In this document: positions 3,727 to 52,914 of the stretch, piece by piece
How the letters are laid out: each line of letters starts with the position of its first letter
Position numbering within the stretch: the stretch's first letter is position 1
Source of the DNA: a virus
DNA length: 64,000 nucleotides
Strand: one strand, 5' to 3'
Virus record (IMG/VR): IMGVR_UViG_3300010413_000019
Span: 7,682-71,681 of that record
Position numbers and translations under genes: made by a program
Notes under the pieces: model-generated
Seen by the model: the letters and a program-made list of their open reading frames with translations, nothing else
What the model was told of the DNA's origin: nothing
Database searches by the model: none

Positions 3727-5040
3727 TTATTTGATGATAGATTTGATGACATGTTTAAATGTCTTTTCCTCCACCTCATTGATTTTCCCGTCAGTAGTAC
3801 GGGAGCAGATGTTCGGCATGAGGTCGAAGAAGTAGCTGGTGAGCTCACGAGGATCTTTACACATCTCGATGATCTCACACAGGTAACGCACGTTCATTGT
3901 GTTCGTAAGCTCTTTGCTCTGAACCAATGTGTCTATCGTGGTATAGACTTTCATCAGCTGCTCGATGACAGCTTCACTGAAGTGACCATCATTACAGGCG
4001 TCAAGGATCTGGCGGACCGAAGATGCAGATACGTTCATATCGATCATGCGGAAACGGTCTGGGAGAGCCAAGTCCATATCCTCTGTGTCATACTCAGCAC
4101 CGATATTGGTGGTTGATACGACCCACAGGTTGCTCTTAGGCACAGATAGAGTCTCTGATACACCGAGACCTGTCTCAGTGTTGATAACACGGTTGGTTCT
4201 GAGGTTGTAGTTACCGGAGCTGTCTGGTGTCAATGCACCGATCAGGATGTGAAGCTCACGCGTCGGGATACGGAGGATCTCATCGATGAACAGGACCGAC
4301 TTATCCTCTTGAGCCGCGCGGAAGGCAGCAGATAGCGGACCATCCATCCATACAAGACCGCCGCTCTCATCCTTGACATAGTAGCCAAGAAGGTCAACAC
4401 TCTCGATACCTGTGTGACCGGCGAGAAATTCGGTGTGGTAACCCTGCTGCTCGCAGCGCTGGGATACGGTATAAGTCTTACCCGCGCCGCGGCCACCGAG
4501 GATCATGATGTGCTTGCGGAACTCATAACGCTCGATGAAGTCGTGTACGCCCACATTGGCATACTTCTTCTTTTCGACCTCAATCTCGCTGAGCATGACA
4601 TCGAATGTCTCAAGCAGTTCAGGGGCCAAGGCCGACAGTACTGGATCGCTCCCCAGCAGTTCTTCGAACTCCTCTCCCTCGAGAACGTGAGCTGTATCGC
4701 CTTTGTAGATGGCTTTGATATCGTTCAGTGATGAGATGATGTTCTTCTGAAGTGACTCAGGGTAGCTGTCAAGGTTGACCGACTTCATCTTACCTGTGAG
4801 CCAGGCGTGAGTAGATTCAGCCTGCTTGATCTTTTTAGATGATGGATCCACATAGACGTATGTGTTTACAACACGCTCATCTGCAGAGTCTGATACATTT
4901 GTCGGGTTGAGCACCGATGACAGAGACTTTCTGCTTGACGGGTCCCCGAGTACGCCCTGGATGTGGGCACCATAAGATAGGGCACCCTGAGGTGTGATGA
5001 AGATCGACTGACGGATCTTTGAATTGATTAATTGTGACAT
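3727..5040 (-). CDS. MoxR/CbbQ/CobS-type AAA+ ATPase
   Basis: Walker A GGRGAGKT, motif W.DGPL, Walker B LFIDE, sensor TTN, DLALPDRF arginine finger. Confidence 0.88.
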   Translation of the reverse strand: MSQLINSKIRQSIFITPQGALSYGAHIQGVLGDPSSRKSLSSVLNPTNVSDSADERVVNTYVYVDPSSKKIKQAESTHAWLTGKMKSVNLDSYPESLQKNIISSLNDIKAIYKGDTAHVLEGEEFEELLGSDPVLSALAPELLETFDVMLSEIEVEKKKYANVGVHDFIERYEFRKHIMILGGRGAGKTYTVSQRCEQQGYHTEFLAGHTGIESVDLLGYYVKDESGGLVWMDGPLSAAFRAAQEDKSVLFIDEILRIPTRELHILIGALTPDSSGNYNLRTNRVINTETGLGVSETLSVPKSNLWVVSTTNIGAEYDTEDMDLALPDRFRMIDMNVSASSVRQILDACNDGHFSEAVIEQLMKVYTTIDTLVQSKELTNTMNVRYLCEIIEMCKDPRELTSYFFDLMPNICSRTTDGKINEVEEKTFKHVIKSIIK

Positions 5041-5363
5041 GGTTCGTCCTTCGTTAATGTTACAGTTATTGGCTCACCCTCAGGCAAGTCGCGGTGGTCA
5101 TAGTCGCCGGCAAGAATGCGGCAGATGACGGAGTAGCTTTTATCCATACCGAGTAAGTCATTGATGTACTCAGTGAACTCTTTACGGTTACGGCACTTGT
5201 GGATCTCGATGTGATCTTCGTAGACCTCTTTGATAAACTCGACCATGTGCACGGTGACAAGTGTTTTATCATACGGTTTATGGTCTTTTTTACGTTCGAC
5301 TTTAGGGCTTCCGCCATGCACGTCAGACATGAGGAATTCCCAGATTACTTTTAGTAGATTCAT
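5028..5363 (-). CDS. hypothetical protein
   Basis: 111 aa ORF with AAGGA RBS, co-oriented with neighbours. Confidence 0.65.
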   Translation of the reverse strand: MNLLKVIWEFLMSDVHGGSPKVERKKDHKPYDKTLVTVHMVEFIKEVYEDHIEIHKCRNRKEFTEYINDLLGMDKSYSVICRILAGDYDHRDLPEGEPITVTLTKDEPCHN

Positions 5364-5375
5364 GATCTATCCTTT

Positions 5376-5657
5376 TTATAGTTCTTCATACCCGGCGGAT
5401 GCCGGTAGGCCGATTGATTCCATCTGAGAGATGATCTCACGGGCGTCTTCAAGAGTAGTCAATCCTGATATTTCCCACTCACCAAGAATGTCATCGTTAT
5501 CTTTTACATAGACAAGGACATCGTAGTACTCGGGCTCTGCATTCAGTTCAGAAGCAGGGATATACTCGTTCTTGTTTTCAGGGTTCTGGATCATTCCGAT
5601 CACCTGAACCTCTGTTGCGTTTTTGACCAGATCGGTCTGTAATTCAGTGAATTCCAT
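5376..5657 (-). CDS. hypothetical acidic protein
   Basis: 93 aa ORF with AAGGA RBS. Confidence 0.65.
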   Translation of the reverse strand: MEFTELQTDLVKNATEVQVIGMIQNPENKNEYIPASELNAEPEYYDVLVYVKDNDDILGEWEISGLTTLEDAREIISQMESIGLPASAGYEEL

Positions 5658-5665
5658 GATGGTCC

Positions 5666-6664
5666 TTATGCTGCGAGTTGGAGCTTACCGGTGGCTTTGT
5701 ACTTCTTGGCCTGCTCGCAGATCTCTGCTACGGCGCAATAGCGGCAGGCAACGACTTCACCTTTGACCTCGACCACTTCACCGACAAACCCGTCTTTAGC
5801 CAGGCGAGCCTGGGCATCGACCTGGTTGTCAAAGTTTTTAGTGGCACGAGTCTTGTTGGCAGGGTTCTTGTAGTACTTCCACACTGTCGGTTTTTCCCAC
5901 AGTTCATCAGGGGTACAGTCAGGAAGCTTGTCATCCGGGAGAGACATGTATTTATCGATCTCCATGACTCTGCCTTTGATCCAGCGATCGGTATTTTCGA
6001 TAGGCATGAGAGGGAACTCTTTAGGGATTACCCGTTCCTGTGGATAGCGGGCAGGGTCTTTGACAGCATCCATCTTGCGCCAGTCTGTAAAGACATACTC
6101 GATCTGCATGATGTCATCGGTGATCTTTTCCGGGTTGGCCCAGCGGTAGATTGACCCCTGTTTGATGTAGTCATCATGTTTGGAGCCAAAGATATGAGTC
6201 CACACCGATGTTGACTTGACATCGATGACACGCCCGTCAAGTACCATGTCAAACTTGCCTGTGATCTTGTAGTCTTTAAAGCCTACTTCTTTGATCACAC
6301 GCTGTTCTACATAGACCGGGATCGTGTCTTCCTCCAGCTCTTCTGGTTCAGGGTTGACCTTGATACGGTCGAACAGGTTCTCTACGCCGAGCATCTTCAG
6401 AGCTACTTTGAGGTTTTCCGGATCTTTCCAGGCTACCTCTACACCCGAGTGAATTGCCGTACCCATGCGGGAGTTGACCAGGGTGGAGATATCCACACGT
6501 TTGTCAAGCTTGTTGTTTTTACGGGCCAGTACGATGGCTTTGATCGGTTTGAGCAGTGTTGTGGCGCTGATAACGGTCGGATCATCAATGTAATCATAGT
6601 CATCGTGCACGAGCCATACAGCCATTGCCAGACTTAGGTTTTTGTTATTGGTATAGATGGTCAT
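5666..6664 (-). CDS. PD-(D/E)xK (Cas4/RecB-like) nuclease, N4 gp42-like
   Basis: ISATTLLKP, MGTAIH, GKFD-MVLDGRVIDVKST catalytic motif, C-terminal CRYC-x5-C. Confidence 0.85.
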   Translation of the reverse strand: MTIYTNNKNLSLAMAVWLVHDDYDYIDDPTVISATTLLKPIKAIVLARKNNKLDKRVDISTLVNSRMGTAIHSGVEVAWKDPENLKVALKMLGVENLFDRIKVNPEPEELEEDTIPVYVEQRVIKEVGFKDYKITGKFDMVLDGRVIDVKSTSVWTHIFGSKHDDYIKQGSIYRWANPEKITDDIMQIEYVFTDWRKMDAVKDPARYPQERVIPKEFPLMPIENTDRWIKGRVMEIDKYMSLPDDKLPDCTPDELWEKPTVWKYYKNPANKTRATKNFDNQVDAQARLAKDGFVGEVVEVKGEVVACRYCAVAEICEQAKKYKATGKLQLAA

Positions 6665-7233
6665 TCATCATCCTTTTTTATGTTTGGGCCTCTTTTTAAG
6701 ATCTCAACAGCTCGATCCAGTTGGCTTTTAGTGATAGTAGAATCTGAGGCGGGGATAGTTTCACTTGTGCTATGCGGGGATTTCAAGTCATCCAGATAGA
6801 TTTCATTAGGGGTTATACCTTTGATTGTAACCCCATAATCAGAGTTACGCATCATAATGCGACCATCTCGGAATGTTTGTCTAGCCAGCTCGTCAGCTAC
6901 CTGCAGCTGTACACGGTGAGCTTCCATACTGCGCTTCACGTAAATATCATCTATGTCCGCAAGGGATAGCTTAGCTGCCGTAGTCTTGCTGACTGCACGT
7001 GCAGAGGGGGCAGTAGTGAAGCTCATTGGATCGTCATAGACACTGGTATCAAAGAAAGATTTGACGGTGCGGTACAGTTGAGCCAGTTCATCACGGTTAA
7101 AGATAAAGATGGGGATCACTTTTACAGAATCAAGATGATCCTGGGCATCGCTTAGGTTTACAAACTCACCGATATGCTCGACTTCGCCGGACATATTGAG
7201 GATGTAATAAGATTTTGCATCTGCCATAGTCAT
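6661..7233 (-). CDS. hypothetical protein
   Basis: 190 aa ORF with ATGA overlaps on both sides. Confidence 0.65.
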   Translation of the reverse strand: MTMADAKSYYILNMSGEVEHIGEFVNLSDAQDHLDSVKVIPIFIFNRDELAQLYRTVKSFFDTSVYDDPMSFTTAPSARAVSKTTAAKLSLADIDDIYVKRSMEAHRVQLQVADELARQTFRDGRIMMRNSDYGVTIKGITPNEIYLDDLKSPHSTSETIPASDSTITKSQLDRAVEILKRGPNIKKDDE

Positions 7234-7586
7234 CCCTTACGCAGTATGTAGTTGTCGTACTCTACGCGGGTATCCAGTGTGATGTACTGGCCCTCGTCTT
7301 TATTGAATACAACGAACTTCTCTGGATCAAAGTTATTGATGTTGCCGGCCTTTTCTTTGATCTCTGCAACGACTAGATCCAGTTTTTCTTGGTCACATTC
7401 ACCCTCTACGAGGTCCCATGTGTAGCTGTACTTTTGACGACCGCTGTGGTCGGAGATTCTGATACTCCCGATACGGGTATCACGGAACTTGATGTAGGCT
7501 GAACGGAACTGGCTTGTGTGCCAGTGCAATGCCCCGTAGGGCTTCAGCTCTGTCATTAGGTGTTTGAATATCTGTTGGATTTTCAT
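7230..7586 (-). CDS. hypothetical protein (IRISDH motif)
   Basis: 118 aa ORF coupled to the DNA polymerase stop. Confidence 0.7.
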   Translation of the reverse strand: MKIQQIFKHLMTELKPYGALHWHTSQFRSAYIKFRDTRIGSIRISDHSGRQKYSYTWDLVEGECDQEKLDLVVAEIKEKAGNINNFDPEKFVVFNKDEGQYITLDTRVEYDNYILRKG

Positions 7587-10189
7587 TTTTTATCCTTTTC
7601 TTCATTTAGTCCATGCTCTATAAGGAACTCTTCGATCTCTTTAACCGACAGGTGGTTTTTGAGCGTGTACTGCTTGTCCCAGGACTTACCGATATCAAGT
7701 TCGGCTTCCATGAGGACCTCTTCACTGTAGATGCTCGGATGAGCATTCCAGCGCATCTCTTCGGTGAGAGTGTCATTGAGCCACTTGATCACTTCTGGTT
7801 CATTCTTGATGATGAAGTATCCGGCATCGTGGATTGTGTTGGCAGCGAAGATCTTGTCCTCGAAGCCTGAACCCTTGAGGCGCTTCTCTGTGGCGATAAG
7901 AGCACGGTTCATCAACTGTCCCCAGGACTGGGTCACAGCATTTGAAGCACTGCGTCCCTCAGAGGCAGCTTCGTAAGGTGTGGACTCTTTCCCTACCAGT
8001 GTTTTGGCGAGGATGGGGGTGCGAAGGCGTAAGCCGAAAGCACACTCGACGAAGCCGTGCTCAGATCCGAATTCAGTGTTCTTCTTGGTGAAGTCACCCA
8101 GACCGCTGTATAGCTCGTGGTATCCGATCTCGATGGCTCTGGCCACATCTTCCGGTAGACCGATGTTCGTGACAAGGGTTTTCCATGTCCCTCCGTACTG
8201 GAGAGCAAAGGATGGGGCTTTAGCCTGGTCTCGGATATCTTTCTGCTCTTTCTTGAACCGATTGATGTCTTCGACCGAGTTGATGTCGTACTGGCGCACA
8301 ACTTCAGGGTCGATGTAGACACCTTTTACTGTTACCGGTTCCTTGAGTTTGGAGAAGAATGCGATGGCTCTGAGTGAGTGGCCGTCAGCACCTTCGGAGA
8401 ACTCTTTGGTCTTCATCGGGTCACCTGACAGGATCGCACCGATACGGTCTTCAAGTGCAGCAAAGTCTGCCCCGGCAATGAGCCACCCATCGGGAGCCAC
8501 GAAGCAGGACTTGATCAGCTTGGCATACGTGGAACCGGAAGGGATGTTCTGCATGTTCGGGCTGTTTGATGATAGGCGGCCGGACTGGGTACCCCCGAGT
8601 TTGAGGTTACCGTTGAGCCAGACCGTACCGTCATTACGTGTGAAGGCCATCTCCTCAAAGTTCTTGATGAAGTTATCGAGGATGATGTCCACTTTGGAGA
8701 TATCGATCAGAGCGTTAAGCACTATCTCCTGCTCCTCCGTTTTGGCGAGGACCTTCAATTTGGCAAGTGTCTTGGCTCCGGTAGCAGGCTCTTTTGAATC
8801 TGTCTTGTCTATGACCGGAAAATCCCAGAACTCATACAGCAGCTTCTGCTTCTGTTTGGTGGATCCAGGATTGAAAGTGACATGTCTGAACTCATCGATG
8901 GATTTCATCTTCTTCTTGAGCTTGTTGTTGGCAGTCACCATTGCTTCGCGCTGCAGTAAAAAGTTGAAGCGCTTGATCGCCGGGGTATTCTCGAGGTCGT
9001 ACATTGCGTTGTAGCGGATGACCTCCAGTTGATCTCGAGTGCTCTTGACCTTGTTCAGATCCATCGGCAGACCGATGAGCATCATCTTGAGCAGCACATT
9101 GAGGGACGGCTGCATGATCTCTTCGTAGATCTTCAACTGATCATCGGCTATCACGGTCGGCATGTACTTGTCATGCACATACCATGTAGCCAGACTGTCA
9201 ACGAGGTTGTACTCGAGTAGGGTATCCATCTCGATCTTGGTGATATCGTTGATGTCCTCCAGGGCATAGTTCCCGGTGAACTCAAATGCGTTCTCTTTGA
9301 GACCCAGCTTGACATCTGCCGTGGAGTTTAGAGCCAGATAGGTGAGCAGCATTGTGTCCTGCACATCTTTGAACACCTCAAGGCCGTGGTGCATACCGAC
9401 GTAATCGGTAGAGTGCTCCATGAAGAGGGTGTAGATCAATACCTTGACATCATAGAGAGAGTTGTGGAACCATACCTTACCCTTGTAGGTCTCGAAGAAG
9501 ACCTTGAGTACTTCTTTGATTGGTTCGGTGATGGGGAAAGCCACACCGTTGTGTTGATCCCAGGCAAAGGAGATGGTTCCCAGCTCGGCCCTCTCGAATC
9601 TCAGACTGGTCGCTTCGATATCACTGGTGAGTGCCGGGATGTCCAGAAGTGAGAGTAGGGTGGTTGCAATAGCTTCAGGTTCTCTCGGATAGTATGCAGA
9701 GTGTATAATGTCTTTACCGAGTTCTTTGAATGTCCCGGCTTTATGCTGAACCAAAGTGTAAAGAGACATGTCGATCTTCTCTTGGACCACCGGGTTATAG
9801 AAGACCGCTTGATAGTTTGAAGATAAGATCACTTTGATATGTTCGTATCCGGGAAGCTTACAGCTCTTGACATAACCGAAATGTGGTTCGGCCTTACGTT
9901 CACCGGTAAGAACTTTGAAGTAGTTACCGTCTGCAACTAAGATCGTATCAATACCGAGATGTTCGATAGATTTAAGTAGAGTTGCGAGGTACTCCTTGAT
10001 AGTTGACACTTTTACTTTCTTGGCATCATCATATTTCAGAGTGAAGGCCACGATCTGATCTTTTGAGATGTCACTCTCTATCGGCTTGACGTAAGTGTCG
10101 TACAAAGGTTGCATCTTAAAGCTGGACTCTTTGATAAGCAGAGCAATCGAGAGATTGTCCGAAGAGTCACCAAATAGAATATGTCGCAT
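7583..10189 (-). CDS. family A DNA polymerase (N4 gp39-like)
   Basis: Exo I SDIEAT, Exo II FHNSLYD, Exo III YNLVD, SGRLSS.PNMQN, motif A DFAALE, motif B RDQAKAPSFALQYGG, motif C IHDA. Likely start is MRHILF at 10189 rather than 10270. Confidence 0.95.
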   Translation of the reverse strand: MRHILFGDSSDNLSIALLIKESSFKMQPLYDTYVKPIESDISKDQIVAFTLKYDDAKKVKVSTIKEYLATLLKSIEHLGIDTILVADGNYFKVLTGERKAEPHFGYVKSCKLPGYEHIKVILSSNYQAVFYNPVVQEKIDMSLYTLVQHKAGTFKELGKDIIHSAYYPREPEAIATTLLSLLDIPALTSDIEATSLRFERAELGTISFAWDQHNGVAFPITEPIKEVLKVFFETYKGKVWFHNSLYDVKVLIYTLFMEHSTDYVGMHHGLEVFKDVQDTMLLTYLALNSTADVKLGLKENAFEFTGNYALEDINDITKIEMDTLLEYNLVDSLATWYVHDKYMPTVIADDQLKIYEEIMQPSLNVLLKMMLIGLPMDLNKVKSTRDQLEVIRYNAMYDLENTPAIKRFNFLLQREAMVTANNKLKKKMKSIDEFRHVTFNPGSTKQKQKLLYEFWDFPVIDKTDSKEPATGAKTLAKLKVLAKTEEQEIVLNALIDISKVDIILDNFIKNFEEMAFTRNDGTVWLNGNLKLGGTQSGRLSSNSPNMQNIPSGSTYAKLIKSCFVAPDGWLIAGADFAALEDRIGAILSGDPMKTKEFSEGADGHSLRAIAFFSKLKEPVTVKGVYIDPEVVRQYDINSVEDINRFKKEQKDIRDQAKAPSFALQYGGTWKTLVTNIGLPEDVARAIEIGYHELYSGLGDFTKKNTEFGSEHGFVECAFGLRLRTPILAKTLVGKESTPYEAASEGRSASNAVTQSWGQLMNRALIATEKRLKGSGFEDKIFAANTIHDAGYFIIKNEPEVIKWLNDTLTEEMRWNAHPSIYSEEVLMEAELDIGKSWDKQYTLKNHLSVKEIEEFLIEHGLNEEKDKK

Positions 10190-10268
10190 AAGAAATCTTT
10201 CAGAAATGTGAGTTATGGTTGAGGGGTTTGAATGTTGATCCATGAGAGAGCACGGAAGTGCTTTGAAC

Positions 10269-10518
10269 AATTACAGTACAAATTACAGTACAAAATCGAG
10301 CTTAAAAAAATATGGCCCTATACAGTGGATTGAGTGGTGGACTGAGGACCCACCACACCACTATTTCTTAAAGTCCGATAAAGTCCGAAAACTAAGTCCC
10401 CATAGACATTTACCCCGCATTTATAATCCAACGTAGTCCAGCTTAATCCGGATGAATCCAGAAATAATTACAGTACATATTGCAGTATAAAAGTTTTATG
10501 CCGTATAATTACAGTATA
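10269..10518. mobile_element. attP-like site: integrase arm-type repeats and ~10-bp-periodic accessory-factor repeats
   Basis: AATTACAGTAYA at 10269, 10281, 10466 and 10507, plus a variant TATTGCAGTATA at 10478. AAGTCC x3 at 10371-10399 and a(a/g)tcc every 10 nt at 10425-10460. Lies immediately upstream of the integrase. Confidence 0.7.
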
Positions 10519-10535
10519 AAACTTGGAGGTGTAGC

Positions 10536-11759
10536 ATGGGTCGCACAACAAAACCTCTCAGCGATGCGGAGGTCCGCAAAGCAAAATCCCTCGAAAAGAT
10601 GTATAAGCTCTTTGACGGAGCGGGGCTCTATCTCGAGGTGAAGACAAATGGCCGTAAGGTATGGCGTACCGACTTCCGATGGGAAGGCAAGACCAAATCA
10701 TACACGATCGGAGACTATCCGACAGTGACTCTCTCTTCGGCCCGTATAACGTCCCAGGAGGTCCGTGAGGATGCCAGGAATGGCATTGATCCAGTACAGA
10801 AGAGAAAAGGCTCTGAGGGCTCTGAGAATGCTGTATCCATACAGACCTTTAAACAGGTTGGAGATGAGTTCATGGAACTCAAATCATACACGTACAGTCT
10901 GTCACACTACATGAAGCAGCACGGCCGGTTGAACAACTACGTCTACCCCTACATCGGATCCAGGGATATCAGGGAGATCACCAAGCAGGACATCATTGAT
11001 CTGATCAAGAATGTCCAGAAGGTAGAGACTAAGACCACCCGGCAGACTCAGAAGCATGAGACAGCCAAGAGAGTCTTTCAGTTGATCTCACAGATCTACC
11101 AGTACGCGGTGCACCATGACATCGTCATTGATGACATCCCCCGGAGGATAGAGTTCAGTTCAGTCATCCCCAGGATCACCCCGCAGAAGCTAAAGGCGAT
11201 CGTTGAACTCAACGGGGTCAGGATGATGTACGGGATGCTCTCGGAGTACCAGGGAGACTTCACAACGAGGAACGCATTGAAGTTCCTGGCTCTATCTGCA
11301 CTGCGGCCGGGGAACATCCGGAACATGAAGTGGGAGTACATCGACTTCCAGAATGATGTGGTCAACTTCCCAGGGGAAGCTATGAAGATGAAGGAGTCAT
11401 ACAGACTCCCTCTCACTTCCACACTGATCCAGTTGATCGATGAGATGAAACCCCTCACCCGGTACCATTCCGAGTATGTCTTCTGCTCGCCTATCGCTCC
11501 GAGCAAGCCGATGTCCGAGAACACTCTGAACTACGCCCATAAAAGAATTGGGATCGCAGACCATAATGCCCACGGCTGGAGAAGCTCGTTCTCAACCCTC
11601 TGTTATGAGAAGCAGAAGGATCACGGCTTCGGAGCTGAAGTAATAGAGAGCCAGTTGGCACACTCACTGGGGAATGCGGTGAAGACTGCCTATCTCAGGA
11701 GTGATTTCATCGTTGAGAGGCAGCTGCTGCTCCGATGGTGGGAGAAACTGATCACGTAA
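10536..11759 (+). CDS. int: tyrosine integrase, P4/IntA type with N-terminal arm-binding domain
   Basis: PLSDAEVRKAK...KLFDGAGLYL arm domain; catalytic residues R (ALRPG), K (MKMK), HGWR, LAH, AY; GGAGG RBS. Confidence 0.95.
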   Translation: MGRTTKPLSDAEVRKAKSLEKMYKLFDGAGLYLEVKTNGRKVWRTDFRWEGKTKSYTIGDYPTVTLSSARITSQEVREDARNGIDPVQKRKGSEGSENAVSIQTFKQVGDEFMELKSYTYSLSHYMKQHGRLNNYVYPYIGSRDIREITKQDIIDLIKNVQKVETKTTRQTQKHETAKRVFQLISQIYQYAVHHDIVIDDIPRRIEFSSVIPRITPQKLKAIVELNGVRMMYGMLSEYQGDFTTRNALKFLALSALRPGNIRNMKWEYIDFQNDVVNFPGEAMKMKESYRLPLTSTLIQLIDEMKPLTRYHSEYVFCSPIAPSKPMSENTLNYAHKRIGIADHNAHGWRSSFSTLCYEKQKDHGFGAEVIESQLAHSLGNAVKTAYLRSDFIVERQLLLRWWEKLIT

Positions 11760-11964
11760 GGTTTAGGGTAATTGACCAGTGAGACGCAGCATACCATTCC
11801 ATCCAGATACCCAGCACGAACATCGTAATAACAAATAGTCGCTCCAACCATTGTATGGTACCCCCAAAGGCAGTCCAGATAGTGACTGTAACTATGGGCT
11901 GTATGATTAGGTAGAGGCCTAATAGATGAACAACAAGTAACCCTATGATAATAAGAAATGTCAT
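11752..11964 (-). CDS. small membrane protein
   Basis: 70 aa with two hydrophobic segments. Confidence 0.6.
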   Translation of the reverse strand: MTFLIIIGLLVVHLLGLYLIIQPIVTVTIWTAFGGTIQWLERLFVITMFVLGIWMEWYAASHWSITLNLT

Positions 11965-12282
11965 TTATGTCTCCTTGTCTTTCATAAAACTAAATTGTAC
12001 CTGCGGCACTGAGTACTGGTTTACCGCATATTTGATGAGAAATTCCGTGTAACTTATCTGCGTACAATTAGAGAAATTTTTTACTTTAGACTGATAAGCC
12101 CACATGTGCATAAACTTGCTAGTATCTCCGTCATCAAAGATGTACTTTTTATTGGCATCATCCGGCTCAATTTCCCATAAATTTGCTGGATGACCATCTT
12201 CGCACATGTTCGAAATGATGTCGTATTCCTCCTGAGTCCAAGGTCTGCCATCATCTTTATAGATTGCTAGATTACGGAGCAT
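11965..12282 (-). CDS. hypothetical protein, tandem paralog 3
   Basis: Shares RN.A.YK.DG..WTQ.EY, KYIFD.G and Y(S/T)VPQVQFSF with the next two genes. Confidence 0.8.
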   Translation of the reverse strand: MLRNLAIYKDDGRPWTQEEYDIISNMCEDGHPANLWEIEPDDANKKYIFDDGDTSKFMHMWAYQSKVKNFSNCTQISYTEFLIKYAVNQYSVPQVQFSFMKDKET

Positions 12283-12284
12283 GA

Positions 12285-12605
12285 TTATTCCTTTTTGTCT
12301 TTCATAAAGCTGAACTGCACCTGCGGCACTGAATACTCTGGCTCTTCCTCATTATCTCGGAAGAACCCCTCAAACGTATATAATTTACAGTTATGGAAAT
12401 TTTCGTTGTTTTCTTGATCATCCCACGGAAACATGAAATATTGAAAGTCCCCATCATCAAAAATATATTTCTGTATTTTATCGGTTTTGGAAAGTTGCAT
12501 ACCATGCACATCTTCAAAATACAGAGCAATCTTTTCATATTCTTCTTGGGTCCAAAATGAGCCATCCTCCTTATAGAGAGCTATGTTACGAAGTGGTTTT
12601 GTCAT
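12285..12605 (-). CDS. hypothetical protein, tandem paralog 2
   Basis: Same motifs as its neighbours. Confidence 0.8.
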   Translation of the reverse strand: MTKPLRNIALYKEDGSFWTQEEYEKIALYFEDVHGMQLSKTDKIQKYIFDDGDFQYFMFPWDDQENNENFHNCKLYTFEGFFRDNEEEPEYSVPQVQFSFMKDKKE

Positions 12606-12928
12606 GATTTGTCCTTGAAAAAACTAAATTGAACCTGCGGTACTGTGTAGACCTCCTCGACTTCTTGCTCATCCACAAAGTAATTGTTGTACTCGAATAT
12701 TATACAATTCTTGAAATTTGGGTCTTTTTCTTGTTGTAGCCAGGGGTGCATAAACCCCTGTGGGTCATCTGTCCCATTATCAAAGATGTATTTTTCTGCT
12801 AACTCCTCATCGATGGGCTCAAATTCAGCATCTGGACCTTCGCAGAATTTAATAATCTTGCGATACTCTTTTTGGGTCCAGGGTTTACCATCCCGTTTAT
12901 AGAATGCTCTATTACGGCGTTGTGTCAT
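12602..12928 (-). CDS. hypothetical protein, tandem paralog 1
   Basis: Same motifs as its neighbours. Confidence 0.8.
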   Translation of the reverse strand: MTQRRNRAFYKRDGKPWTQKEYRKIIKFCEGPDAEFEPIDEELAEKYIFDNGTDDPQGFMHPWLQQEKDPNFKNCIIFEYNNYFVDEQEVEEVYTVPQVQFSFFKDKS

Positions 12929-12993
12929 GACCGATCCTTTCTATTCTTGGTTCCATTGAACCAACGATACAAATGAACGGGGAGATCCCCGTA

Positions 12994-13224
12994 TTACGCA
13001 GCCAACAGCTTGGCAATGTTCTTGTTGATAGCGCGGGCACGCTGAACATCAGTCTCGTGATCTTTGATCTCAGTATGGAGATCAGCAAGCTGTTCTTTCT
13101 TATCATCGATCATGACACTCTGCTGCTCAATAAACGCGTCAAGCTGTTTCTTTGTCTTATCGAAGTTTGAGACGATAGATGACAGAGATGGTGTTGACTT
13201 GAACCAGGCAATGATACTTTTCAT
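12994..13224 (-). CDS. small coiled-coil protein
   Basis: Likely start MKSIIAW at 13224 after AAAGGAGG; heptad pattern. Confidence 0.65.
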   Translation of the reverse strand: MKSIIAWFKSTPSLSSIVSNFDKTKKQLDAFIEQQSVMIDDKKEQLADLHTEIKDHETDVQRARAINKNIAKLLAA

Positions 13225-13264
13225 CCTTCCTCCTTTCTGGCTGGCGCCAAAGATAAGGGACCGG

Positions 13265-13438
13265 TCAGGCACTCTGCCTGTGCTCCAGCACCCAGTTGAC
13301 CACTTCTTCGTAGACCCAGCGGGTACATCGAGGAGTGAGTTGTACTTTTGAGGGGAAGCCCTCGAGTTTTACGAATTCCCAGGCGGTAGACTTGCTCACT
13401 TTGAGCATCTCCGCGATCTCTTTGATTGATATAAGCAT
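13265..13438 (-). CDS. AlpA-family excisionase / recombination directionality factor (57 aa)
   Basis: Below the ORF-track cutoff. Translates as MLISIKEIAEMLKVSKSTAWEFVKLEGFPSKVQLTPRCTRWVYEEVVNWVLEHRQSA, with the AlpA pattern (HTH, FP, RW, EV..W). Confidence 0.85.
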   Translation of the reverse strand: MLISIKEIAEMLKVSKSTAWEFVKLEGFPSKVQLTPRCTRWVYEEVVNWVLEHRQSA

Positions 13439-13641
13439 TATTCTCTCAAAAGTGTTTCATTGTGTTTGATGGCTCTGAGGATCTCAGATATCCGGTAGTT
13501 CTGCCGGCGCTGCCACTTGACGCTCTGGAGTTTCAGGACAAGCTCGAAGGCCAGTCTGTTCTTCTCCAGCAGAGCTTCATCATAGGGCATGTCATGCCAT
13601 GTCGCCTTATTGACACCGTAGTAGTACTTACAAGTCTTCAT
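13438..13641 (-). CDS. hypothetical protein
   Basis: Likely start MKTCKYYYG at 13641; TAATG coupling to the excisionase. Confidence 0.6.
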   Translation of the reverse strand: MKTCKYYYGVNKATWHDMPYDEALLEKNRLAFELVLKLQSVKWQRRQNYRISEILRAIKHNETLLRE

Positions 13642-14047
13642 ACAGCTCCCACTTTTTGGTTTTAGGGTTGTAGTACTCGATCCGGTCGAAGTAATCAAGG
13701 GGGACATCTTGTATCGCCACATGCCATTCATCCGGGTTAGAGCCTACTGATAAAGCACTGAAGCACAGACCGTCCCAGTTAATTGTGAATTGTTTGTACT
13801 CTGAGGCAGGAGGTATATGAAGACCTTTCCCCCAGTTATAGCGCAGTCGGATACGGCCGACAGTGTCCAGCTCTTCATGGGTATTGAGCATGAAGCATGT
13901 CTCTTCCCACTCTTCATTTGAGCTGAACCATACAAAAGGCATCTCATACGGTAGTAGTTTACTTCTATCGTGAGGAGATCTTTTTACGATCCCCGACTCT
14001 TTGATCATAATGAGCTTGGGAACCAAGGTGTAATGATAGAGGTTCAT
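13628..14047 (-). CDS. hypothetical protein
   Basis: 139 aa; begins LYHYT...VWFS, weakly reminiscent of ADP-ribosyltransferase-like folds. Confidence 0.65.
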   Translation of the reverse strand: MNLYHYTLVPKLIMIKESGIVKRSPHDRSKLLPYEMPFVWFSSNEEWEETCFMLNTHEELDTVGRIRLRYNWGKGLHIPPASEYKQFTINWDGLCFSALSVGSNPDEWHVAIQDVPLDYFDRIEYYNPKTKKWELYEDL

Positions 14048-14497
14048 TCACTGCTCCTTCAGGATCCGCTGGACCTTGTTGTAATAGGTATAGTTTTTGG
14101 TTCCACCGTTGTATCTGCTGATGGCCCCGAAGTAGCCGTGACGTTTACGGTGGTACTCGAATAGTTTGCACCCGACCATAACACAGAAAGCCCGGTTGTG
14201 GGTCAGGATATGCTTGAGTGCTTTATCCGGTACGTGCTTGACCCATCTGAGTGACTGCTCTTTCGTAGCGAGCCATCTCAGTGTAGGGATCTGCACCTGC
14301 ATAACACCGTGGCTCTCCCCATCGTCTCCGGTCACATTACGGCAAGAGGTCTCGGCCTTTGCCATAGCCAGGATGGTGGAAGGGTATTCAGTGTACTTCT
14401 CGGCTTCCTTGTAGACTGTCTGCACACACTCTTTATCGTATGCTGCGGCCTGTATGGAGAGCCAGCAAGCACATAAGAGTGCGAGCAGTAATCTCAT
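14048..14497 (-). CDS. secreted lytic transglycosylase (SLT domain)
   Basis: Signal peptide ending AAA, catalytic AET(S), GVMQV, AISRYNGG. Confidence 0.85.
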   Translation of the reverse strand: MRLLLALLCACWLSIQAAAYDKECVQTVYKEAEKYTEYPSTILAMAKAETSCRNVTGDDGESHGVMQVQIPTLRWLATKEQSLRWVKHVPDKALKHILTHNRAFCVMVGCKLFEYHRKRHGYFGAISRYNGGTKNYTYYNKVQRILKEQ

Positions 14498-14498
14498 G

Positions 14499-14801
14499 TC
14501 AATCCTTTGGTTTTAGCTGTTCGAATCTTTCGTGCAGGTACGCTACAGCACGTTCTGTCAAATTGATCTCTGCCCAGGTCTCGTTGAGCGAGAGGTATGC
14601 GCGTAATCGGATCATTAATGCAGTAAGTTCTTCGATGTTATCTGTAGCCTCGGCTTGTTCGATGATTTCATCCACAGCATCCTGGATGGAAGTCTTTATC
14701 GATTGTTCGTGCTTGTGGTTTTGGTACAAACCTACAAGTATGAGCAGCACAATGGCCAGGATAACTACACCTAACCCATAGATCATGTATTTTGGTTCCA
14801 T
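14499..14801 (-). CDS. membrane-anchored hypothetical protein
   Basis: N-terminal transmembrane helix. Confidence 0.65.
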   Translation of the reverse strand: MEPKYMIYGLGVVILAIVLLILVGLYQNHKHEQSIKTSIQDAVDEIIEQAEATDNIEELTALMIRLRAYLSLNETWAEINLTERAVAYLHERFEQLKPKD

Positions 14802-14810
14802 GTGAACCTC

Positions 14811-15368
14811 CTATTCGTAGACATCTGCCTGTTCAAGGATCTCGAGTACCTTTGCCTCAAGTTCAGCCAGGGTGCCAGTGTTTTGGATACGGTAGTCGTA
14901 AGGGTAGAAGTTCATCGCAGTCTCACTCACGTGAGTATCCGTTGACTCTGCACGACCCGTAACATTGATAGAGAAAGACCCTTTGATATACTCGGACGGG
15001 AATCGGAAGTCCGGGATGATCACTGTCGTGCCACCCTCCATCTGGTATGCCTGGATCTCTCGGATAACGACATCACGCCATACCTTTGCACCGAAGTGGT
15101 GTTTCATCTGCCCGCTGCCGAAGCGCTGCAGGAATACGCGGAAGTCCACTACAAGGAACACCAGTTGTCGGTACTTGAGGAATGCTTTGATGCGACCGCT
15201 GTTTTTGGCATACTCGAGTTGCTCAAGGGAAATACCGAATGCATCGGCTACGATATCCTTCATTGCATCAGCAAATCGGATGATTCTGCCACCGGTTGCC
15301 TTCTGAATGATGTCGGCTGCAGTGTCTTTTCCTTGGCGTTTTTGATGCCCGATCATGATTACGTTCAT
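14811..15368 (-). CDS. deoxynucleoside monophosphate kinase
   Basis: G.KRQGKDT P-loop, FADAMK, RVFLQ.FG, DFRFPSE, HVSE, NTGTL. Confidence 0.9.
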   Translation of the reverse strand: MNVIMIGHQKRQGKDTAADIIQKATGGRIIRFADAMKDIVADAFGISLEQLEYAKNSGRIKAFLKYRQLVFLVVDFRVFLQRFGSGQMKHHFGAKVWRDVVIREIQAYQMEGGTTVIIPDFRFPSEYIKGSFSINVTGRAESTDTHVSETAMNFYPYDYRIQNTGTLAELEAKVLEILEQADVYE

Positions 15369-15455
15369 TAAAAAATTTCCTTGATAAGGTTTAGGGTGTG
15401 TTTAGTGCAAATGGGTGGATTTTGGAAAAATAGTCTTTAGGTTTGACCCTTTTTG

Positions 15456-15686
15456 TTAAGGGTTCATACCTGCCGCTTTGATACGGTTTTCGAGCTTCTC
15501 TTCCAGCTCCTTGGTTCGGATCTGGCGATCTACATCCATCTCTTTTTTCATCAGGTCGATCTCGTTGTCAGACATGGTCTTACCAAAGTCGACCCAATCA
15601 CCTAAGATGTTCACCGAGTTGGTGATAACATCCATTGTCCGGCCAAGTGCTTCAAACACCTTGCCTATTGCTGTGAATGGTTTCAT
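15456..15686 (-). CDS. small helical protein, paralog of 29456..29692
   Basis: M.PF amphipathic N-terminus and coiled C-terminus; follows a hairpin promoter candidate. Confidence 0.65.
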   Translation of the reverse strand: MKPFTAIGKVFEALGRTMDVITNSVNILGDWVDFGKTMSDNEIDLMKKEMDVDRQIRTKELEEKLENRIKAAGMNP

Positions 15687-15799
15687 TGTTGACTCCTATC
15701 AGATTTGCAGTATTAAAAAGTCAATGTCATTAAAGCTCTCATCGAGCTCACCTGTACTCATTTGCAGTCCTTTACGTAGCCCGGATGGGCTGGTCTTCC

Positions 15800-17323
15800 T
15801 CAGGCTGCTTCCCCAAAAGCACGAAATACTTTCAAGTTCCGCACATGTCTCAGGCCATATTTAATACGGCCGTCATGTCGGTAGGGTTCTACCCTTGCGG
15901 TGAACTGGACGGTATCCCCTGGTTTTGCTTTTTCCCAGCGTTTGCTGTACTTGACAAAGGTGTGGTCACGCCAGTAGATACCTTCGATGAACAGGTCACC
16001 GAGAAGCATTTTGTACTTGAATCGGTAATGGGTATCGAGCTTCTCTCTGAGGAGGCACTCTACTTTTACGGTCTTACCTACGTGTTCTGACATGTCCATA
16101 TCGATACCTTTACCTGTGCCCACCTTTGAGTAACTCGACAAGGTATTGCTCTTTTGTCTTACCCTCCATCAAAGCCTTGTCTTTGATAGCCAGACCGGCA
16201 AGTAAGGCCTGTATGGTCTTTGGTTCAAGGGCGTGTAGGAGGTACTCTGCGAGGTGGGTTGATTTTGTGAATCTCTGCCCGGTAAGGTTCTCGAGTATAA
16301 ATGCGACCATCCCGTCTTCAGTTTTGTAGACTCTTTCGGACATATACAGAATACCGGTAAGGGTATTTCGATCATCCATATTTTCAATATGGTCGACGGC
16401 TTCCCCGAAAGTACGACCTTCATGGTTGAAGGTGTATTCCATCGGATCTTTGGTTAAAAATTTCATAGGGTGTCCTTAATCTGAGGGTTCCCACACATCA
16501 GTGGACTCCCCTGAGTTGATCTCGCCCTGTTCGATCATGGCAAAATCACGTTTACGTTTTTCGAGCATCTCGATCATCTGTTTTTTGTAACCTGTTGGTA
16601 GTGCATCATGGTTCTTGATGATCTCGATCTCTGTGTTGATATCAGCGATTTGCTGTTTGGGATTCATAGTGTTCCTCCTCAATGATTTTTAATACTCGTG
16701 TAAAGTAGTAATCCATCCCCCCTATGTGTAGGAAGTAGAAGGACGCTAAGATAGTGTAACCGTAAAAGACCAGCAGGAATGTGACTACGATGTCATAGAA
16801 GATATCGAACCAACGAGGTATTGATCGGACCGGTCTTTGTGGGTGGGATTTGATGACTTCATCTTTTACTAAGTAAAGGAGTACACCATATACAGCAGCA
16901 AGCCAGTAGAGAAATACCGAGAATGCCATAAAGCCTTCATGCATATACTCATGGCTGTAAACAAACATGAATAGGATTCCGAAGTTTACAATGAACCATC
17001 GTGTGGCAGAGGAGAACATATCAGATCTCCGTCAGCTCGTAGCATGGAGCGTCAAAGGTTACACCCCTGTAGCTGATAACGATTGTAGGTTCATTGTCGA
17101 ACAAGTGATAGACCACCGGATTACCATTAACGTGTCCGAAGAAACCGTTGATCTGTTGGTTCCATTCAGCCGGGTACTTACCAAAAAATACCATATCGGC
17201 TGATACGATTGTGACGTTGACAGGTGTGCCACCTACATCACATGAGTAGGCTTTACCCACGTTGAATTCCGCTGAGATAGCGGATATCGCAAGTGCGATG
17301 AGTAATAGGATTTTCTTGATCAT
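15800..17323 (-). CDS. cluster of five small hypothetical genes (15800-16141, 16110-16466, 16476-16682, 16642-17019 membrane, 17021-17323 secreted)
   Basis: Tightly packed co-oriented ORFs with RBSs; hydrophobic segments or signal peptide in the last two. Confidence 0.6.
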
Positions 17324-18129
17324 GAGATCTCCTTTTCGATGAGAGCTGCGAGGTCACGCATCTCTTTCTGAGTGTGGGCGTCCTTGAGACGCTGGTTGAT
17401 GAAGTGTGGCCATGCGTTGGGGTTGTTGGTGTACCCGCCCAGCGTGTATACGCGGTAAGCAAGCATGTCTGAACCACGGGCATATACCTCACGGCGCTTG
17501 ATGCCGAGGACTTTGTTCATGAACACTTCCAGATCCTCTGGAGCTGATCTTTGAACACGCTTATTCCAATGGATTTGAGCTGCTTCCTCTGTTGCCAGGT
17601 AGGGCACACTGTAAACGTACTCAAGATACCCGGGAGGCATCCAGTAACCGAGACCGGCTTCGGTATAACGGTTGGAGTGTGAGACCGATGTGATCTGGTT
17701 ATGTGTAGAGGCTTGGCCGTACAAGAAGTATGGTGCCTTGATCTGCACTGCACGGTAGTGGGTGAAGTCAATCACTTCCAATACTTCTTCCCAGGCCCAG
17801 CCCCATGCTAGTAGCTCGCGGGCATTGGTACAGTACAGGGTGGCGTCTTGTGAAAGAAAACCAAAGAACTGTCTTAATGCTCCACCCTCAGCTTTCCATT
17901 GCATAAATACCTCGGGTTGCGGGATGGTACACGGCACATACTCGAAGACACGGCTTGGCTTGCCGCCGTAGCTCTCTTTCAGCAGTCTGTCAAAGAGCTT
18001 GTCGTTGTCTTTGGGTGCTTTGTTACGGACTACCATGACACAGTCAGCCAGGTACTGCTTGATAGAAGCATCGGTGATCTCTGTAGGGATCTTGATTTTA
18101 GTTACCTGCATTGTCTGGTTTCTCCTCAA
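17320..18129 (-). CDS. thyX: divergent flavin-dependent thymidylate synthase (ThyX-like)
   Basis: STHNQITSVSHSNRY aligns with the ThyX RHRx7SxRY motif; C-terminal QRLKDAHTQKEMRDLA aligns with LRxxxHAQxEIRxxA. Confidence 0.7.
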   Translation of the reverse strand: MRRNQTMQVTKIKIPTEITDASIKQYLADCVMVVRNKAPKDNDKLFDRLLKESYGGKPSRVFEYVPCTIPQPEVFMQWKAEGGALRQFFGFLSQDATLYCTNARELLAWGWAWEEVLEVIDFTHYRAVQIKAPYFLYGQASTHNQITSVSHSNRYTEAGLGYWMPPGYLEYVYSVPYLATEEAAQIHWNKRVQRSAPEDLEVFMNKVLGIKRREVYARGSDMLAYRVYTLGGYTNNPNAWPHFINQRLKDAHTQKEMRDLAALIEKEIS

Positions 18130-20937
18130 TAGTGTTCAGGACACACACCACTGTATCTCGGTTCATATCTGCGAAACCTATAATAGTTTCCTCAATAGAG
18201 GAACCCTCTTCCGGGAATACTCCCCCATCGTCAAACACATAGGTGTTGTAGGAGATCTCTCCGTCTTGATTGATATAGCCGACAGCGATCTTATCACCGT
18301 CTTCTACGATGATGCATCTGTCCGGGAGTGTGTATTCATCAGGCATCGATTCCCTCCAACTCATCAGGAATTTGGACAATACCCTGAGCAATCAGGATTT
18401 CCATACCAAGTTCGATATCTTGTTGTGTTGGTTCGAAACCTTCGATAAGTTTGAGGCCGTCTTCTTGGATCTCCATTACACGGTCTGTAACAATGCCCTT
18501 GTCAGCGAGCTCATTTAGTGTTTTGATGCAGTGGACGACACACTTAGCGGCGTGTAGTTCTTCCGGTGTCATCTCTTCAAGTGATTTAATTTCCATTTTT
18601 TGGTCCCTTTTGTTTGAAAGTTTTTATAGCAAGTAATGCAAGTATTGTAAGTATGGCCGCGATTGTGAATGAACAAGCAAATAGATCTCCGCTGCATACT
18701 TCAAAATCGGGTGTGTCTACAGGTGAGTAGAGTTGCATCACTCAGTCCCTGTTCTTGGATCGGTTTTTGAGGCATGTGTCCATTTAGATGTGAAGCTTTT
18801 ATTGTGGGAAGTAAAAGAGGTACACCCGGAATCCCATGCCATAGGATACCCGTCATGAATACCCGCAAAATGCCTTTTCAGAGCAGCCTTAGGGTTAGAC
18901 TCCCAGACCCAGATAGGGTCATCGATCTTCCAGTCATCATACGGCTTTACTTCGACGAGGTCATAATCACTGGCCCCGCGAGATTCGTAGAAACGCCCGT
19001 CTTTTTGATGTACGAATAAAGCACCGTCACTGCGCATTGAAACAACTGACATAGTTGAATTCCTATCAACACATAGAACTCTTACAGGCTCACCGTTGCG
19101 GTAACGGTACTCCTTATCCATTGAGATTGATTCAGACATGTTAATCCTTTTCTATCCCCCAGGCTTCCGCCAGGGACATCTGTATATTTGGTTGATTGAT
19201 TGATTTGAGGTACTCGTAGGCTCCGGCGCACATCTTTAGTGCTTGGTTCGAGCCAGAGGTATTCATGTCAGTATCGAGGTCATACACTGTTTTATGGCAG
19301 TTGAATGAGTTCATCGAATCTGATCGGAGCATCTCTTTGAGCTGGTCTACTCTCCCTTCCTTGAGATGCATGGCTTTACCATTATCTCTGAAGGGGCAGT
19401 TACTGCACATTTTTAGTACGCGGTATTCATTTGATTCTACGAGTTCCATGTATCCACCTATTGTTTATCTTTATAGCTGTCTTCTTCGGTGACTGCAGAC
19501 CATACCGCGGCAGCAAGAAAGAGTGCTGCAATTAGATATATCCAGTCCATGTTAACACCCGGATGGGTGCTTGAGGGCAAAAATCTTTGCCGCTCTGCGG
19601 GCAATACGCGCCCAGCGGGTATCATAGTTGATCTTCATGTTCTTCCTTTCTGCCAGGGTGGTGGTGGCAGCATGTCTTTGATATGCTCGAGTTCTTCATC
19701 GAAGTCTCGGCCACATAGATGGCATAGTCGTTGTAGTTTTTCTAGGGCTTCAAAGATCCCTGTAGCTCCTTCGAGCTCACCCTCGTAAAATGAGGAGTTG
19801 GCATCGCACATCTGGCGATCGTACTTTCTGTCATCAAGTGTGTCCATCTTGAGATCTCCTCTTTTTAATGTCGATCAGTTCAGCAGTAAAGCCATTTACG
19901 ATCTGCTTCATTGATTCTCTGGCGAACTCTAAGGCACGCTCTGCAGACTCTACGCTGCCGTCAGCTGCTATGTTCTTCATGTCCTCTATGACTTTTTCAG
20001 ACATAGCTTCGAAATCTATTTTGACTTTGTCCACTTCATCCATGCCGTCTCCTTTAGAGTTTTTCATAGAGCGCATTTGCTCTGTATGCTAAAGAGGTCT
20101 TCCCCCAAATAATGGTCTCGCACCATTCAATGCACCCTATGAAAAGCTCGGAGGTAGCCGAAGCTACCATGATTACATCGGTTTTGAGATGACCGGGATA
20201 TCTGTTTTAAGCTCAGCTGTGCACTTGAAGAGGCGCATTGTCTTGCCGAGATGTACCGGCTGTTTCATAGCCTCGTGTGCTTGTTTTTCAGATTTGAATT
20301 CGAGGGTGTCGAAGAAAGAACCATCCGCGTTGAATACGAGTCCACGGTAATTTTTAGTTACCTCAAGATCTGTTTTTTCACGCTGTGGCTTTGATGATGT
20401 TACGACTTTACCGTCGATACGGATCTCTACTGATGATTTTGTTAGTGACATTGGTGTTTCCTGTTTTGGGATTTCGATTTCTTGGCACAGGTTGGTCTGT
20501 ACTACGGTTGGCTCTTCGCAGAGCGATTCTGGTGGTGTTGGTTCAGGTTTAAGGCGCAATCGTACCCCTGAGGTGAATCCGCGGACATCCGTTTCTGGGT
20601 GTACGAATTCCCATTCCGGGTTGCCTGCCTCAAGTCCGTAGTCCATAGTCCATTCAAATTCCGCACCGGCATTTTCATGGAGTTTGTAGACGTAAGCCTC
20701 AATAGGGGTGAAGATTCTTGATTTAGCTGTTGGGGCACCTTTTGGCTGGTGAATACGGAAGATTATTTTGTTAGAGATTTTTGAAATGTCGATATCATCC
20801 GGAACTTTGTCCCAGTTGGCTGTATTTTCATTTTTGTCATACAGCAATTTGACACACCAGTCAAACTCTACGTTACCGTCACCCGATACAAGAAGCTCAT
20901 AGGCCTCTTTAGGGGTATAGATTTTAAAATCAGCCAT
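18098..20937 (-). CDS. cluster of small hypothetical genes (18098-18391, 18339-18596, 18738-19139, 19141-19449 Cys-rich, 19635-19847, 19834-20076, 20173-20937)
   Basis: Co-oriented ORFs; 19141-19449 has CSNCPF, FNCHKT and CAGA as probable metal ligands. Confidence 0.6.
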
Positions 20938-22275: not shown

Positions 22276-22351
22276 TGGCCAATGCGGGTGGACTCGAACC
22301 ACCAACCTTCGGATTTGGAATCCGGTGCTCTACCAGTTGAGCTACGCAAAG
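22276..22351 (-). tRNA. tRNA-Trp (CCA), atypical
   Basis: CTTTGCG-TA-GCTC-AACTGGTA-GAGC-A-CCGGA-TTCCAAA-TCCGA-AGGTT-GGTGG-TTCGAGT-CCACC-CGCATTG-G-CCA. Has a C27.A43 mismatch and two U.U pairs in the acceptor stem. Confidence 0.9.
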
Positions 22352-25065: not shown

Positions 25066-25080
25066 AGGCTCATAGCGACC

Positions 25081-30038: not shown

Positions 30039-30113
30039 TGCGCTGTAGCTCAGAGGCAGAGCAGCTCCCTGTTAAGGAGATGGTCGGAGGTTCGACCCCT
30101 CCCAGTGCAGCCA
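30039..30113 (+). tRNA. tRNA-Asn (GTT)
   Basis: TGCGCTG/CAGTGCA acceptor, CT-GTT-AA loop, GGAGG-TTCGACC-CCTCC T arm, encoded CCA. Confidence 0.92.
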
Positions 30114-52822: not shown

Positions 52823-52914
52823 ATAAACTCCTTTTCCTGATTATACTGTAAAAAATTTGATTACAGGTTGGGTTAAGGTATAATTATAACAGAAAATAAC
52901 AACGGAGGTGAACA

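Follow-up and report, generated by a model that had tools for sequence, protein, structure and literature searches.

The described systems that come closest to the one treated here are the E. coli cryptic prophage CP4-57, which has IntA and AlpA at ssrA, and satellite phage P4, whose Int is comparable. A more general model is the lambda-type attP, where arm-type sites lie on both sides of a core and the integrase has a separate arm-binding domain. N4-like phages have linear genomes with terminal repeats, and their early transcription relies on a polymerase injected from the virion. They are mostly taken to be strictly lytic, and this is among the reasons for preferring them in phage therapy. 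The stretch of DNA analyzed here, called the window, is 64 kb of an N4-like phage and corresponds to bases 7682-71681 of the 71,681-bp IMG/VR record IMGVR_UViG_3300010413_000019, rated by CheckV as linear and 97% complete. We consider it probable that positions 10270-13438 of the window are a site-specific integration/excision module of the CP4-57/P4 kind, present in its unintegrated attP form. The module is compact and well delimited, with an attP of about 270 bp and two genes.

The N4-like identity of the window is given by a virion RNA polymerase of at least 3074 aa (phrog_2206, E = 0), by both RNAPII subunits (phrog_2051, E = 8.2e-112; phrog_2166, E = 4.5e-57), and by TerL and a major head protein, which together place it in Schitoviridae, the N4-like phages. 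The source is an uncultured phage from marine sediment, and the sequence is found in one marine sediment metagenome study only. Megablast of positions 7000-15000 against 50,697 phage records returns no match. Relatives of the DNA polymerase are found at 38-48% identity on 44 N4-like IMG/VR contigs, many of them 65-78 kb, and these serve below as the N4-like relatives.

The integrase, its attachment site and AlpA

The features of the module and its left neighbor are as follows.

7583-10270, minus strand: family A DNA polymerase, left neighbor of the att region (Pfam DNA_pol_A, E = 5.5e-46)
10270-10292, plus strand: two tandem exact arm-type repeats ATTACAGTACA, proposed P arm (repeat search)
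10332-10360, plus strand: candidate core, tentative, an inverted repeat GTGGTGG/CCACCAC (7 bp) around 9 nt (direct reading)
10369-10406, plus strand: TAAAGTCCGA twice, then the CCCCATAGA motif, candidate accessory-factor site in the P' arm (direct repeat D3)
10467-10518, plus strand: three arm-type repeats (10467, 10479, 10508), proposed P' arm, overlapping the int promoter elements
10480-10509, plus strand: promoter-like TTGCAG-18 nt-TATAAT for int (direct reading)
10536-11759, plus strand: tyrosine integrase (Int) of P4/CP4-57 type, 407 aa, with arm-binding, core-binding and catalytic domains (Pfam, PDB, PHROG)
13265-13438, minus strand: AlpA-family winged-helix protein, 57 aa, candidate recombination directionality factor and/or int regulator (Pfam, PDB, PHROG)

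An earlier note, written from the sequence without database searches, had called the first of the two genes a P4-type integrase with all catalytic residues, and the searches agree. All three domains are recognized by Pfam, as Arm-DNA-bind_3 (PF13356, E = 2.5e-22), Phage_int_M (PF22022, E = 1.4e-16) and Phage_integrase (PF00589, E = 6e-19), while residues 8-92 match PDB ID: 3ju0 (E = 5.5e-17) and 3jtz, a "CP4-like integrase" (E = 6.8e-10). In an alignment of 23 homologues, the catalytic residues R257, K284 and Y386 do not vary, while conservation of H346, R349 and H376 is at least 90%. The best homologue, at 61% identity, is on a 3.7-kb contig, and the named ones are from vent Campylobacterota, namely Nitratiruptor at 50% and Nautilia and Caminibacter at 43-46%.

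When metagenomes were scanned with an alignment made from the 11 closest integrases, 80 loci were obtained, and 31 of these were checked for tRNAs with ARAGORN. In 15 of the 31, a tRNA or transfer-messenger RNA (tmRNA) gene on the same strand ends 176-212 nt before the start of int, the genes being tmRNA and the tRNAs for Val, Ser, Met, Leu, Thr, Glu and Ala. Partial tRNA or tmRNA 3' ends were seen by eye at the contig starts of 4 further loci (L065, L066, L081, L086). Related integrases thus show the classical layout of a tRNA-island integrase; this linkage is an observation on the relatives of Int, not on the window phage.

The attP-like array that the earlier note had placed next to the integrase is there as well. 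Upstream of int, the repeat ATTRCAGTAYA has 5 exact copies at 10270, 10282, 10467, 10479 and 10508, all on the plus strand, and none elsewhere in the 64 kb. Allowing up to one mismatch raises the number to 9, against 3.68 expected, and 9 or more occur in 0 of 100 shuffles. The copies flank 10293-10466 in a 2 + 3 arrangement, which is the pattern of repeated arm sites found in an attP of lambda/P4 type.

Inside this interval, the crossover core is placed tentatively near 10332-10360, because of a tRNA-end match, a spacing like that of the relatives, and the position of a downstream motif. The match is a tRNA 3'-end-like string ending ACCCACCA at 10355, inside the candidate core and 180 nt before the int ATG, a distance within the range of 176-212 nt given above. 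Among 13 tRNA ends flanking related integrases, 10340-10355 is best matched (13/16) by the tRNA-Met of L072 and L076. The motif is TCCC(A/T)TAAA, in the form TCCCAAAAA in L067, and it lies at +30 to +48 past the tRNA or tmRNA end in 10 of the 15 relatives (L067, L070, L071, L073, L074, L079, L082-L085); its counterpart in the window, CCCCATAGA, is at +43, with a shuffle fraction of 0.02 for a regular expression that was chosen post hoc. The 10 relatives have this motif in common though their arm-type repeats differ in all cases, and an accessory factor common to them may bind there.

That no attB was found would suit a recombinase with another job, of the Cre/Xer kind, resolving multimers or circularizing a plasmid-like prophage rather than integrating into a chromosome, and if N4-like genomes, linear with terminal repeats, pass through a circular stage, that stage might need resolution. 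We rate such a role as very improbable, because an arm-binding domain together with arm-type sites is the hallmark of the directional lambda/P4-type integrases, and because the relatives of Int adjoin tRNA genes. An integration module that is real and functional, with Int recombining attP and attB, is probably what these features represent.

The second gene is likewise as the earlier note had it, a 57-aa AlpA-type gene at 13265-13438. The protein scores 31.3 bits against PF05930 (E = 1.8e-7, cut-off 21), a family that Pfam names after the AlpA of CP4-57. Residues 2-54 match PDB ID: 8c3t, "AlpA family phage regulatory protein" (E = 2.3e-4), and PHROG assigns it to phrog_66, "excisionase and transcriptional regulator" (E = 3.9e-8). 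It is convergent with int, 1505 nt downstream, and its stop and start overlap those of its neighbors in a minus-strand operon.

AlpA homologues accompany related integrases too. In 13 of the 78 loci having at least 400 nt of downstream sequence, tblastn finds one 18-1653 nt downstream of int, and 7 of these 13, including the close relatives L065, L071, L072 and L094, are convergent within 18-314 nt. The window shares this orientation, with int and alpA pointing at each other. PF05930 occurs in 1 of 45 N4-like records, which is the window record, and thus in 0 of the 44 relatives. The two genes are alike in composition (GC of 0.51; GC at third codon positions of 0.68 for int and 0.64 for alpA) and unlike the four AT-rich genes that follow int. 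Because of the tRNA/tmRNA linkage, the presence of AlpA beside related integrases and its absence from the 44 N4-like relatives, the simplest history would be that int and alpA are a co-acquired pair of the CP4-57/P4 kind, with the cargo genes inserted later. AlpA is the likely excision/directionality factor, or else an activator of int. The earlier note had spoken of a complete integration/excision kit; its parts are real and the relatives support their forming one module, but the completeness is presumed, with a core that is tentative and an AlpA that is possibly a regulator.

The integrase family is also typical of tRNA and tmRNA islands, and the locus has cargo-like genes that are absent from N4-like relatives, which raises the idea of a small integrative element, independent of the phage, that entered the phage genome and travels with it as in a vehicle. 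No duplicated att sequence was found flanking the stretch, and therefore the configuration is that of an attP and not that of an element integrated into the phage. The arm repeats, too, surround a single compact site adjacent to int, as in attP and not as in attL or attR, and alpA is translationally interlocked with the neighboring phage open reading frames (ORFs). On this evidence an independent element is quite improbable.

Integrated form, repressor and assembly

The record holds the free form, as the earlier note had said, since phage genes lie on both sides of the att site, with DNA polymerase to the left and middle genes to the right, in a virus contig that has no host flanks.

As for its further claim that the phage is temperate, neither an integrated copy nor an attL/attR junction, an attB or a host turned up in searches that were narrow, covering genome contigs, Desulfobacterota genomes, IMG/VR and the contigs of three runs. 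This and several other results weigh against a working module. A scan of genome contigs with Int gave two distant loci only, at 28-30% identity, in metagenome-assembled genomes (MAGs) of Desulfovibrio and Mailhella. The 15-mer core ACTGAGGACCCACCA has 0 exact matches in 401 Desulfobacterota genomes; with one mismatch it has 37 hits in 36 Desulfobacterota genomes, comparable to a reversed-pattern control, and it has 0 hits in the Desulfovibrio and Mailhella MAGs. Two exact patterns run against IMG/VR, one of T-loop plus core and one of the double arm repeat, gave 0 hits each. At the att site, neither joints nor loose ends appear in the contigs of runs X1, X2 and X3, contigs being blind to rare integrated forms; cover by X3 is close to nil, and 9874-10407 lies outside the contigs of X2. 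As for the att region itself, ARAGORN finds no tRNA in it, the three phage tRNAs of the window being elsewhere, and Rfam at E ≤ 10 over 10100-10700 returns noise only, the core not being recognizable as a tRNA fragment. The match to the tRNA-Met end is weak alone, with 3 hits in the window against 0.59 expected. As for AlpA, five ORFs covering 1.5 kb separate its gene from int, and AlpA-family proteins can be regulators and are not always excisionases. Finally, the window has no HTH_3 or S24 match that would indicate a CI-type repressor, and its only gene of a repressor-like family, a ribbon-helix-helix (RHH) gene, is interrupted in the window record by an in-frame TGA at 28258-28260.

The RHH gene is one of three genes that, by the earlier note, run against their operons, the others being int and a lipoprotein gene. 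The claim is confirmed, with the two further genes located and a lipobox found in the second:

28199-28482, plus strand: ribbon-helix-helix gene, counter-oriented in the early/middle block (RHH_1, 15.5 bits, read through 1 TGA)
52442-52822, minus strand: lipoprotein of 126 aa that runs against the late block and has a promoter-like site of its own (lipobox LLIGC)

The RHH_1 score of 15.5 bits is below the cut-off of 20.5. An intact 94-aa version (P0135, PF01402) is present on a 44,900-bp contig from another assembly of the source run, equal in length to the X1 contig described below; the protein is identical after the position of the stop and has Leu at the TGA codon. By this comparison the in-frame TGA is an assembly variant or error and not recoding. 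An alternative genetic code was considered and ruled out, since TGA ends 8 of 35 confident genes and the other assembly has Leu. No homologue of the RHH protein is found in any of the 44 N4-like relatives, and by its distribution the gene is accessory, like int and alpA. The lipoprotein has no Pfam or PHROG family. An arm repeat with one mismatch, TTTACAGTATA, is at 52842-52852 on the minus strand, where it overlaps a TATAAT just upstream of the lipoprotein ribosome-binding site; since chance would give about 3.7 near-matches of this kind in the window, a regulatory link between the lipoprotein and Int through this site is only a lead.

The failure to find an integrated form and the broken RHH allele of the window record are what one would expect if the phage were lytic and the int-alpA cassette an idle passenger, brought in from a tRNA-linked island by illegitimate recombination and no longer integrating. 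The nearest relatives of Int are indeed island integrases and not genes of N4-like phages, and int and alpA are now separated by inserted AT-rich ORFan genes. Nevertheless, Int retains every catalytic residue, and the five arm repeats remain exact, a state that would not survive decay. A second sample also has the same sequences of int and alpA, and an intact RHH allele exists. We hold an idle passenger to be unlikely.

As a result that would undo its proposal, the earlier note had named a chimeric assembly of the integrase region. The junction between DNA polymerase and integrase is in a metagenome assembly, from a sequence present in one study only, and the gap in X2 over 9874-10407 falls on it. 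X1, however, has a 44.9-kb contig from a second assembler that spans 4000-20000 with 0 differences and no joint, although X1 may be the source of the record, with possibly the same reads, and so not independent. X2, from the same study, has identical short pieces of int (10788-11051) and alpA (13257-13483) at depths similar to those of other phage pieces, and the composition of both genes is within the phage range. A chimera is unlikely, and we give it hardly any credence.

Proposed control and neighboring genes

Our model of the CP4-57/P4-kind module starts from what is observed, namely which genes and repeats are present, the families they belong to and their linkage in relatives; lysogeny, the function of AlpA, the integration target and the position of the core are what we infer. 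In this model, int would be driven by a host-type promoter of its own. The N-terminal domain of Int would bind the five ATTRCAGTAYA sites around a core near 10332-10360, of which two are left of the core and three right of it. Int would recombine the core with a host tRNA-type gene at its 3' end, leaving int about 180 nt downstream of the tRNA, much as in the relatives of Int. The arm sites at 10479 and 10508 overlap the -35 and the -10/start region of the proposed int promoter. A 15-nt inverted repeat (10491-10505 / 10510-10524) brackets the int -10, and GGAGG follows at 10525-10529. With arm sites and an inverted repeat lying over the promoter, autoregulation by Int and/or control by AlpA is likely, and Int probably limits its own synthesis.

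AlpA, acquired together with int, would act in excision and directionality or would activate int. Because alpA is embedded in the minus-strand middle operon, it would be expressed only with the lytic program, which would couple excision to lytic growth and would fit a directionality factor acting after induction. The counter-oriented RHH gene would be the sole repressor candidate. A further idea, which we put forward as doubtful, is that an N4-like prophage may need little or no classical repressor, because its lytic cascade would depend for its start on the RNA polymerase injected from the virion; Int from a host-type, self-limited promoter would then favor integration, and AlpA, encoded in the RNAPII middle operon, would confine excision to the time when the lytic program is under way. 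If this were true, the direction of recombination would be set by the transcribing polymerase, a new logic for a lysis-lysogeny switch.

The earlier note had also given each of the three counter-oriented genes a sigma70-like -10. By direct reading, int and the lipoprotein gene have one, while the promoter scan calls no such site upstream of the RHH gene. The int promoter is itself not called by the consensus scan, its TATAAT being perfect and its -35 poor, with a first hexamer that matches 3 of 6 bases. The sole scan-called site among the three genes is that of the lipoprotein, TTCACC-18 nt-TATAAT with a TG before it, at 52912-52883. Promoter-like sites are not enriched in 9800-14600, with 5 found against 8.5 expected, and because the promoter scans are not above shuffles, the sigma-70 argument for a set of lysogeny genes is weak.

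The genes between int and alpA are the following.

11752-11964, minus strand: 70-aa membrane protein, cargo between int and alpA (phrog_25941, "membrane protein," moron category, E = 4.2e-9; GC 0.423)
11965-12928, minus strand: three tandem paralogous ORFs of 105, 106 and 108 aa, 47-50% identical (GC 0.36-0.40)
12994-13272, minus strand: 92-aa ORF, overlapping the end of alpA by 8 nt (phrog_2380, E = 2.5e-11)

The GC content of the tandem paralogues is below the range of 29 phage genes. They share a C-terminal VPQVQFSF(M/F)KDK, their family matches are weak or none with Atlas scores below 0.9, and a protein search with one of them finds only itself and one of its two sister copies in the same record. 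A terminator-like hairpin at 12992-12977 follows the 92-aa ORF.

To the left of the att region, the DNA polymerase probably starts below the TTG at 10270, with 10243 or 10189 as possible true starts, because most alignments to relatives begin at query residues 17-28 or later. In the window at large, the minus strand encodes the genes of roughly the first 30 kb and the plus strand those beyond. Its three tRNAs, all called by ARAGORN, are these:

22276-22351, minus strand: tRNA-Trp(CCA)
30039-30113, plus strand: tRNA-Asn(GTT)
30346-30420, plus strand: tRNA-Gln(TTG)

The last two are located where the two transcription blocks diverge. Between a 492-aa and a 122-aa gene, about 830 bases at 24254-25080 have no convincing ORF on either strand and are possibly a regulatory or origin region. 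In the late block, a 134-aa protein (38759-39163, plus strand) has a 51%-identical stretch (84 aa, E = 4e-24) at 3265-3516 of L077, a metagenome locus that also has a related integrase. The virion RNA polymerase frame (54777-63998) is still open where the record ends, two bases being left over, and an ORF at bases 2-253 of the record start (L049 2-253) is in the frame that continues it; because the frame continues across the record ends, the record resembles a complete assembly that is circularly permuted and lacks host flanks.

Comparison with N4-like relatives and known integration systems

The surprise that the earlier note expressed at an integrase in an N4-like phage was overstated. A Phage_integrase match is present in 15 of the 44 N4-like relatives, 13 of them over the cut-off, and in 9 of the 23 records that are at least 90% complete. 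Two of these integrase-bearing records, G012 and G034, are flagged as proviruses, and in G034 (75 kb) the integrase is at the very end of the record. Because the integrases belong to 7 or more lineages that are unrelated or only distantly related (G003-G043; loci L051-L061 and L156-L159), we conclude from their sequences that integrases have been acquired repeatedly in this part of the N4-like family. One 395-aa integrase is common to six N4-like records at 90-99% identity, and the provirus G034 shares its lineage, at 58% identity, with the free-form G036. The window Int has 25% identity to the nearest integrase of the sampled N4-like relatives.

Lysogenic N4-like viruses are already published. 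In the passages considered, PMC10654107 (mSystems 2023) reports 54 uncultured N4-like genomes and proviruses with lysogeny markers, meaning an integrase, a transposase or a diversity-generating retroelement (DGR), with marine as the largest habitat group (14 of 54 genomes), and also 40 integrated proviral contigs, mostly from Moraxella. These genomes are like the window in being N4-like, marine and equipped with a phage integrase, and the window record may already be listed among the 54. In the main text of that paper the word "excisionase" is absent, and the passages considered describe no attP, whereas the window has an attP layout and an AlpA. Judged by titles and the starts of abstracts, a literature search on N4-like prophages brought up no paper about an N4-like attP, and the portion of PMC8224337 considered mentions N4-like phages only as lytic roseophages. 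What is novel here is the defined attP layout and the co-acquired AlpA only. As an int-attP-AlpA set in an N4-like member, it adds evidence for integrating lineages in the family, and the advance is incremental; the point of interest is how a phage that depends on an injected polymerase enters and leaves lysogeny.

In that respect the T7-like podoviruses are a useful comparison. They are another family, and the dependence of N4-like early transcription on a virion-injected polymerase changes what the silencing of a prophage needs. The likeness, as far as the portions of these sources considered go, is that the T7-like podoviruses have their own RNA polymerase and were for long taken to be strictly lytic, yet some members, such as LUZ100 (PMC10134795) and pelagiphages (10.1101/410191), have integrases.

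With the lambda attP, the window shares 2 + 3 arm sites around an inverted-repeat core and an integrase with an arm-binding domain, its core being only tentatively placed. A difference from lambda is seen in the integrated relatives, where the arm repeats form two clusters on the int side of the tRNA, and taking the left repeat pair of the window as a P arm is therefore an interpretation by analogy.

The comparison with CP4-57 and P4 is the closest. The Arm-DNA-bind_3 N-terminal domain and a small AlpA-family partner are common to all, and the closest relatives of the window Int that have upstream sequence follow tmRNA 3' ends (L065, L066, L067), as in CP4-57. The candidate core of the window is not a tmRNA or tRNA-Ala end, since the ...CTCCACCA ending is absent from it. 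The carrier also differs, CP4-57 and P4 being an island and a satellite, whereas here it is an N4-like genome of the virulent type, with alpA 1.5 kb from int in a phage operon.

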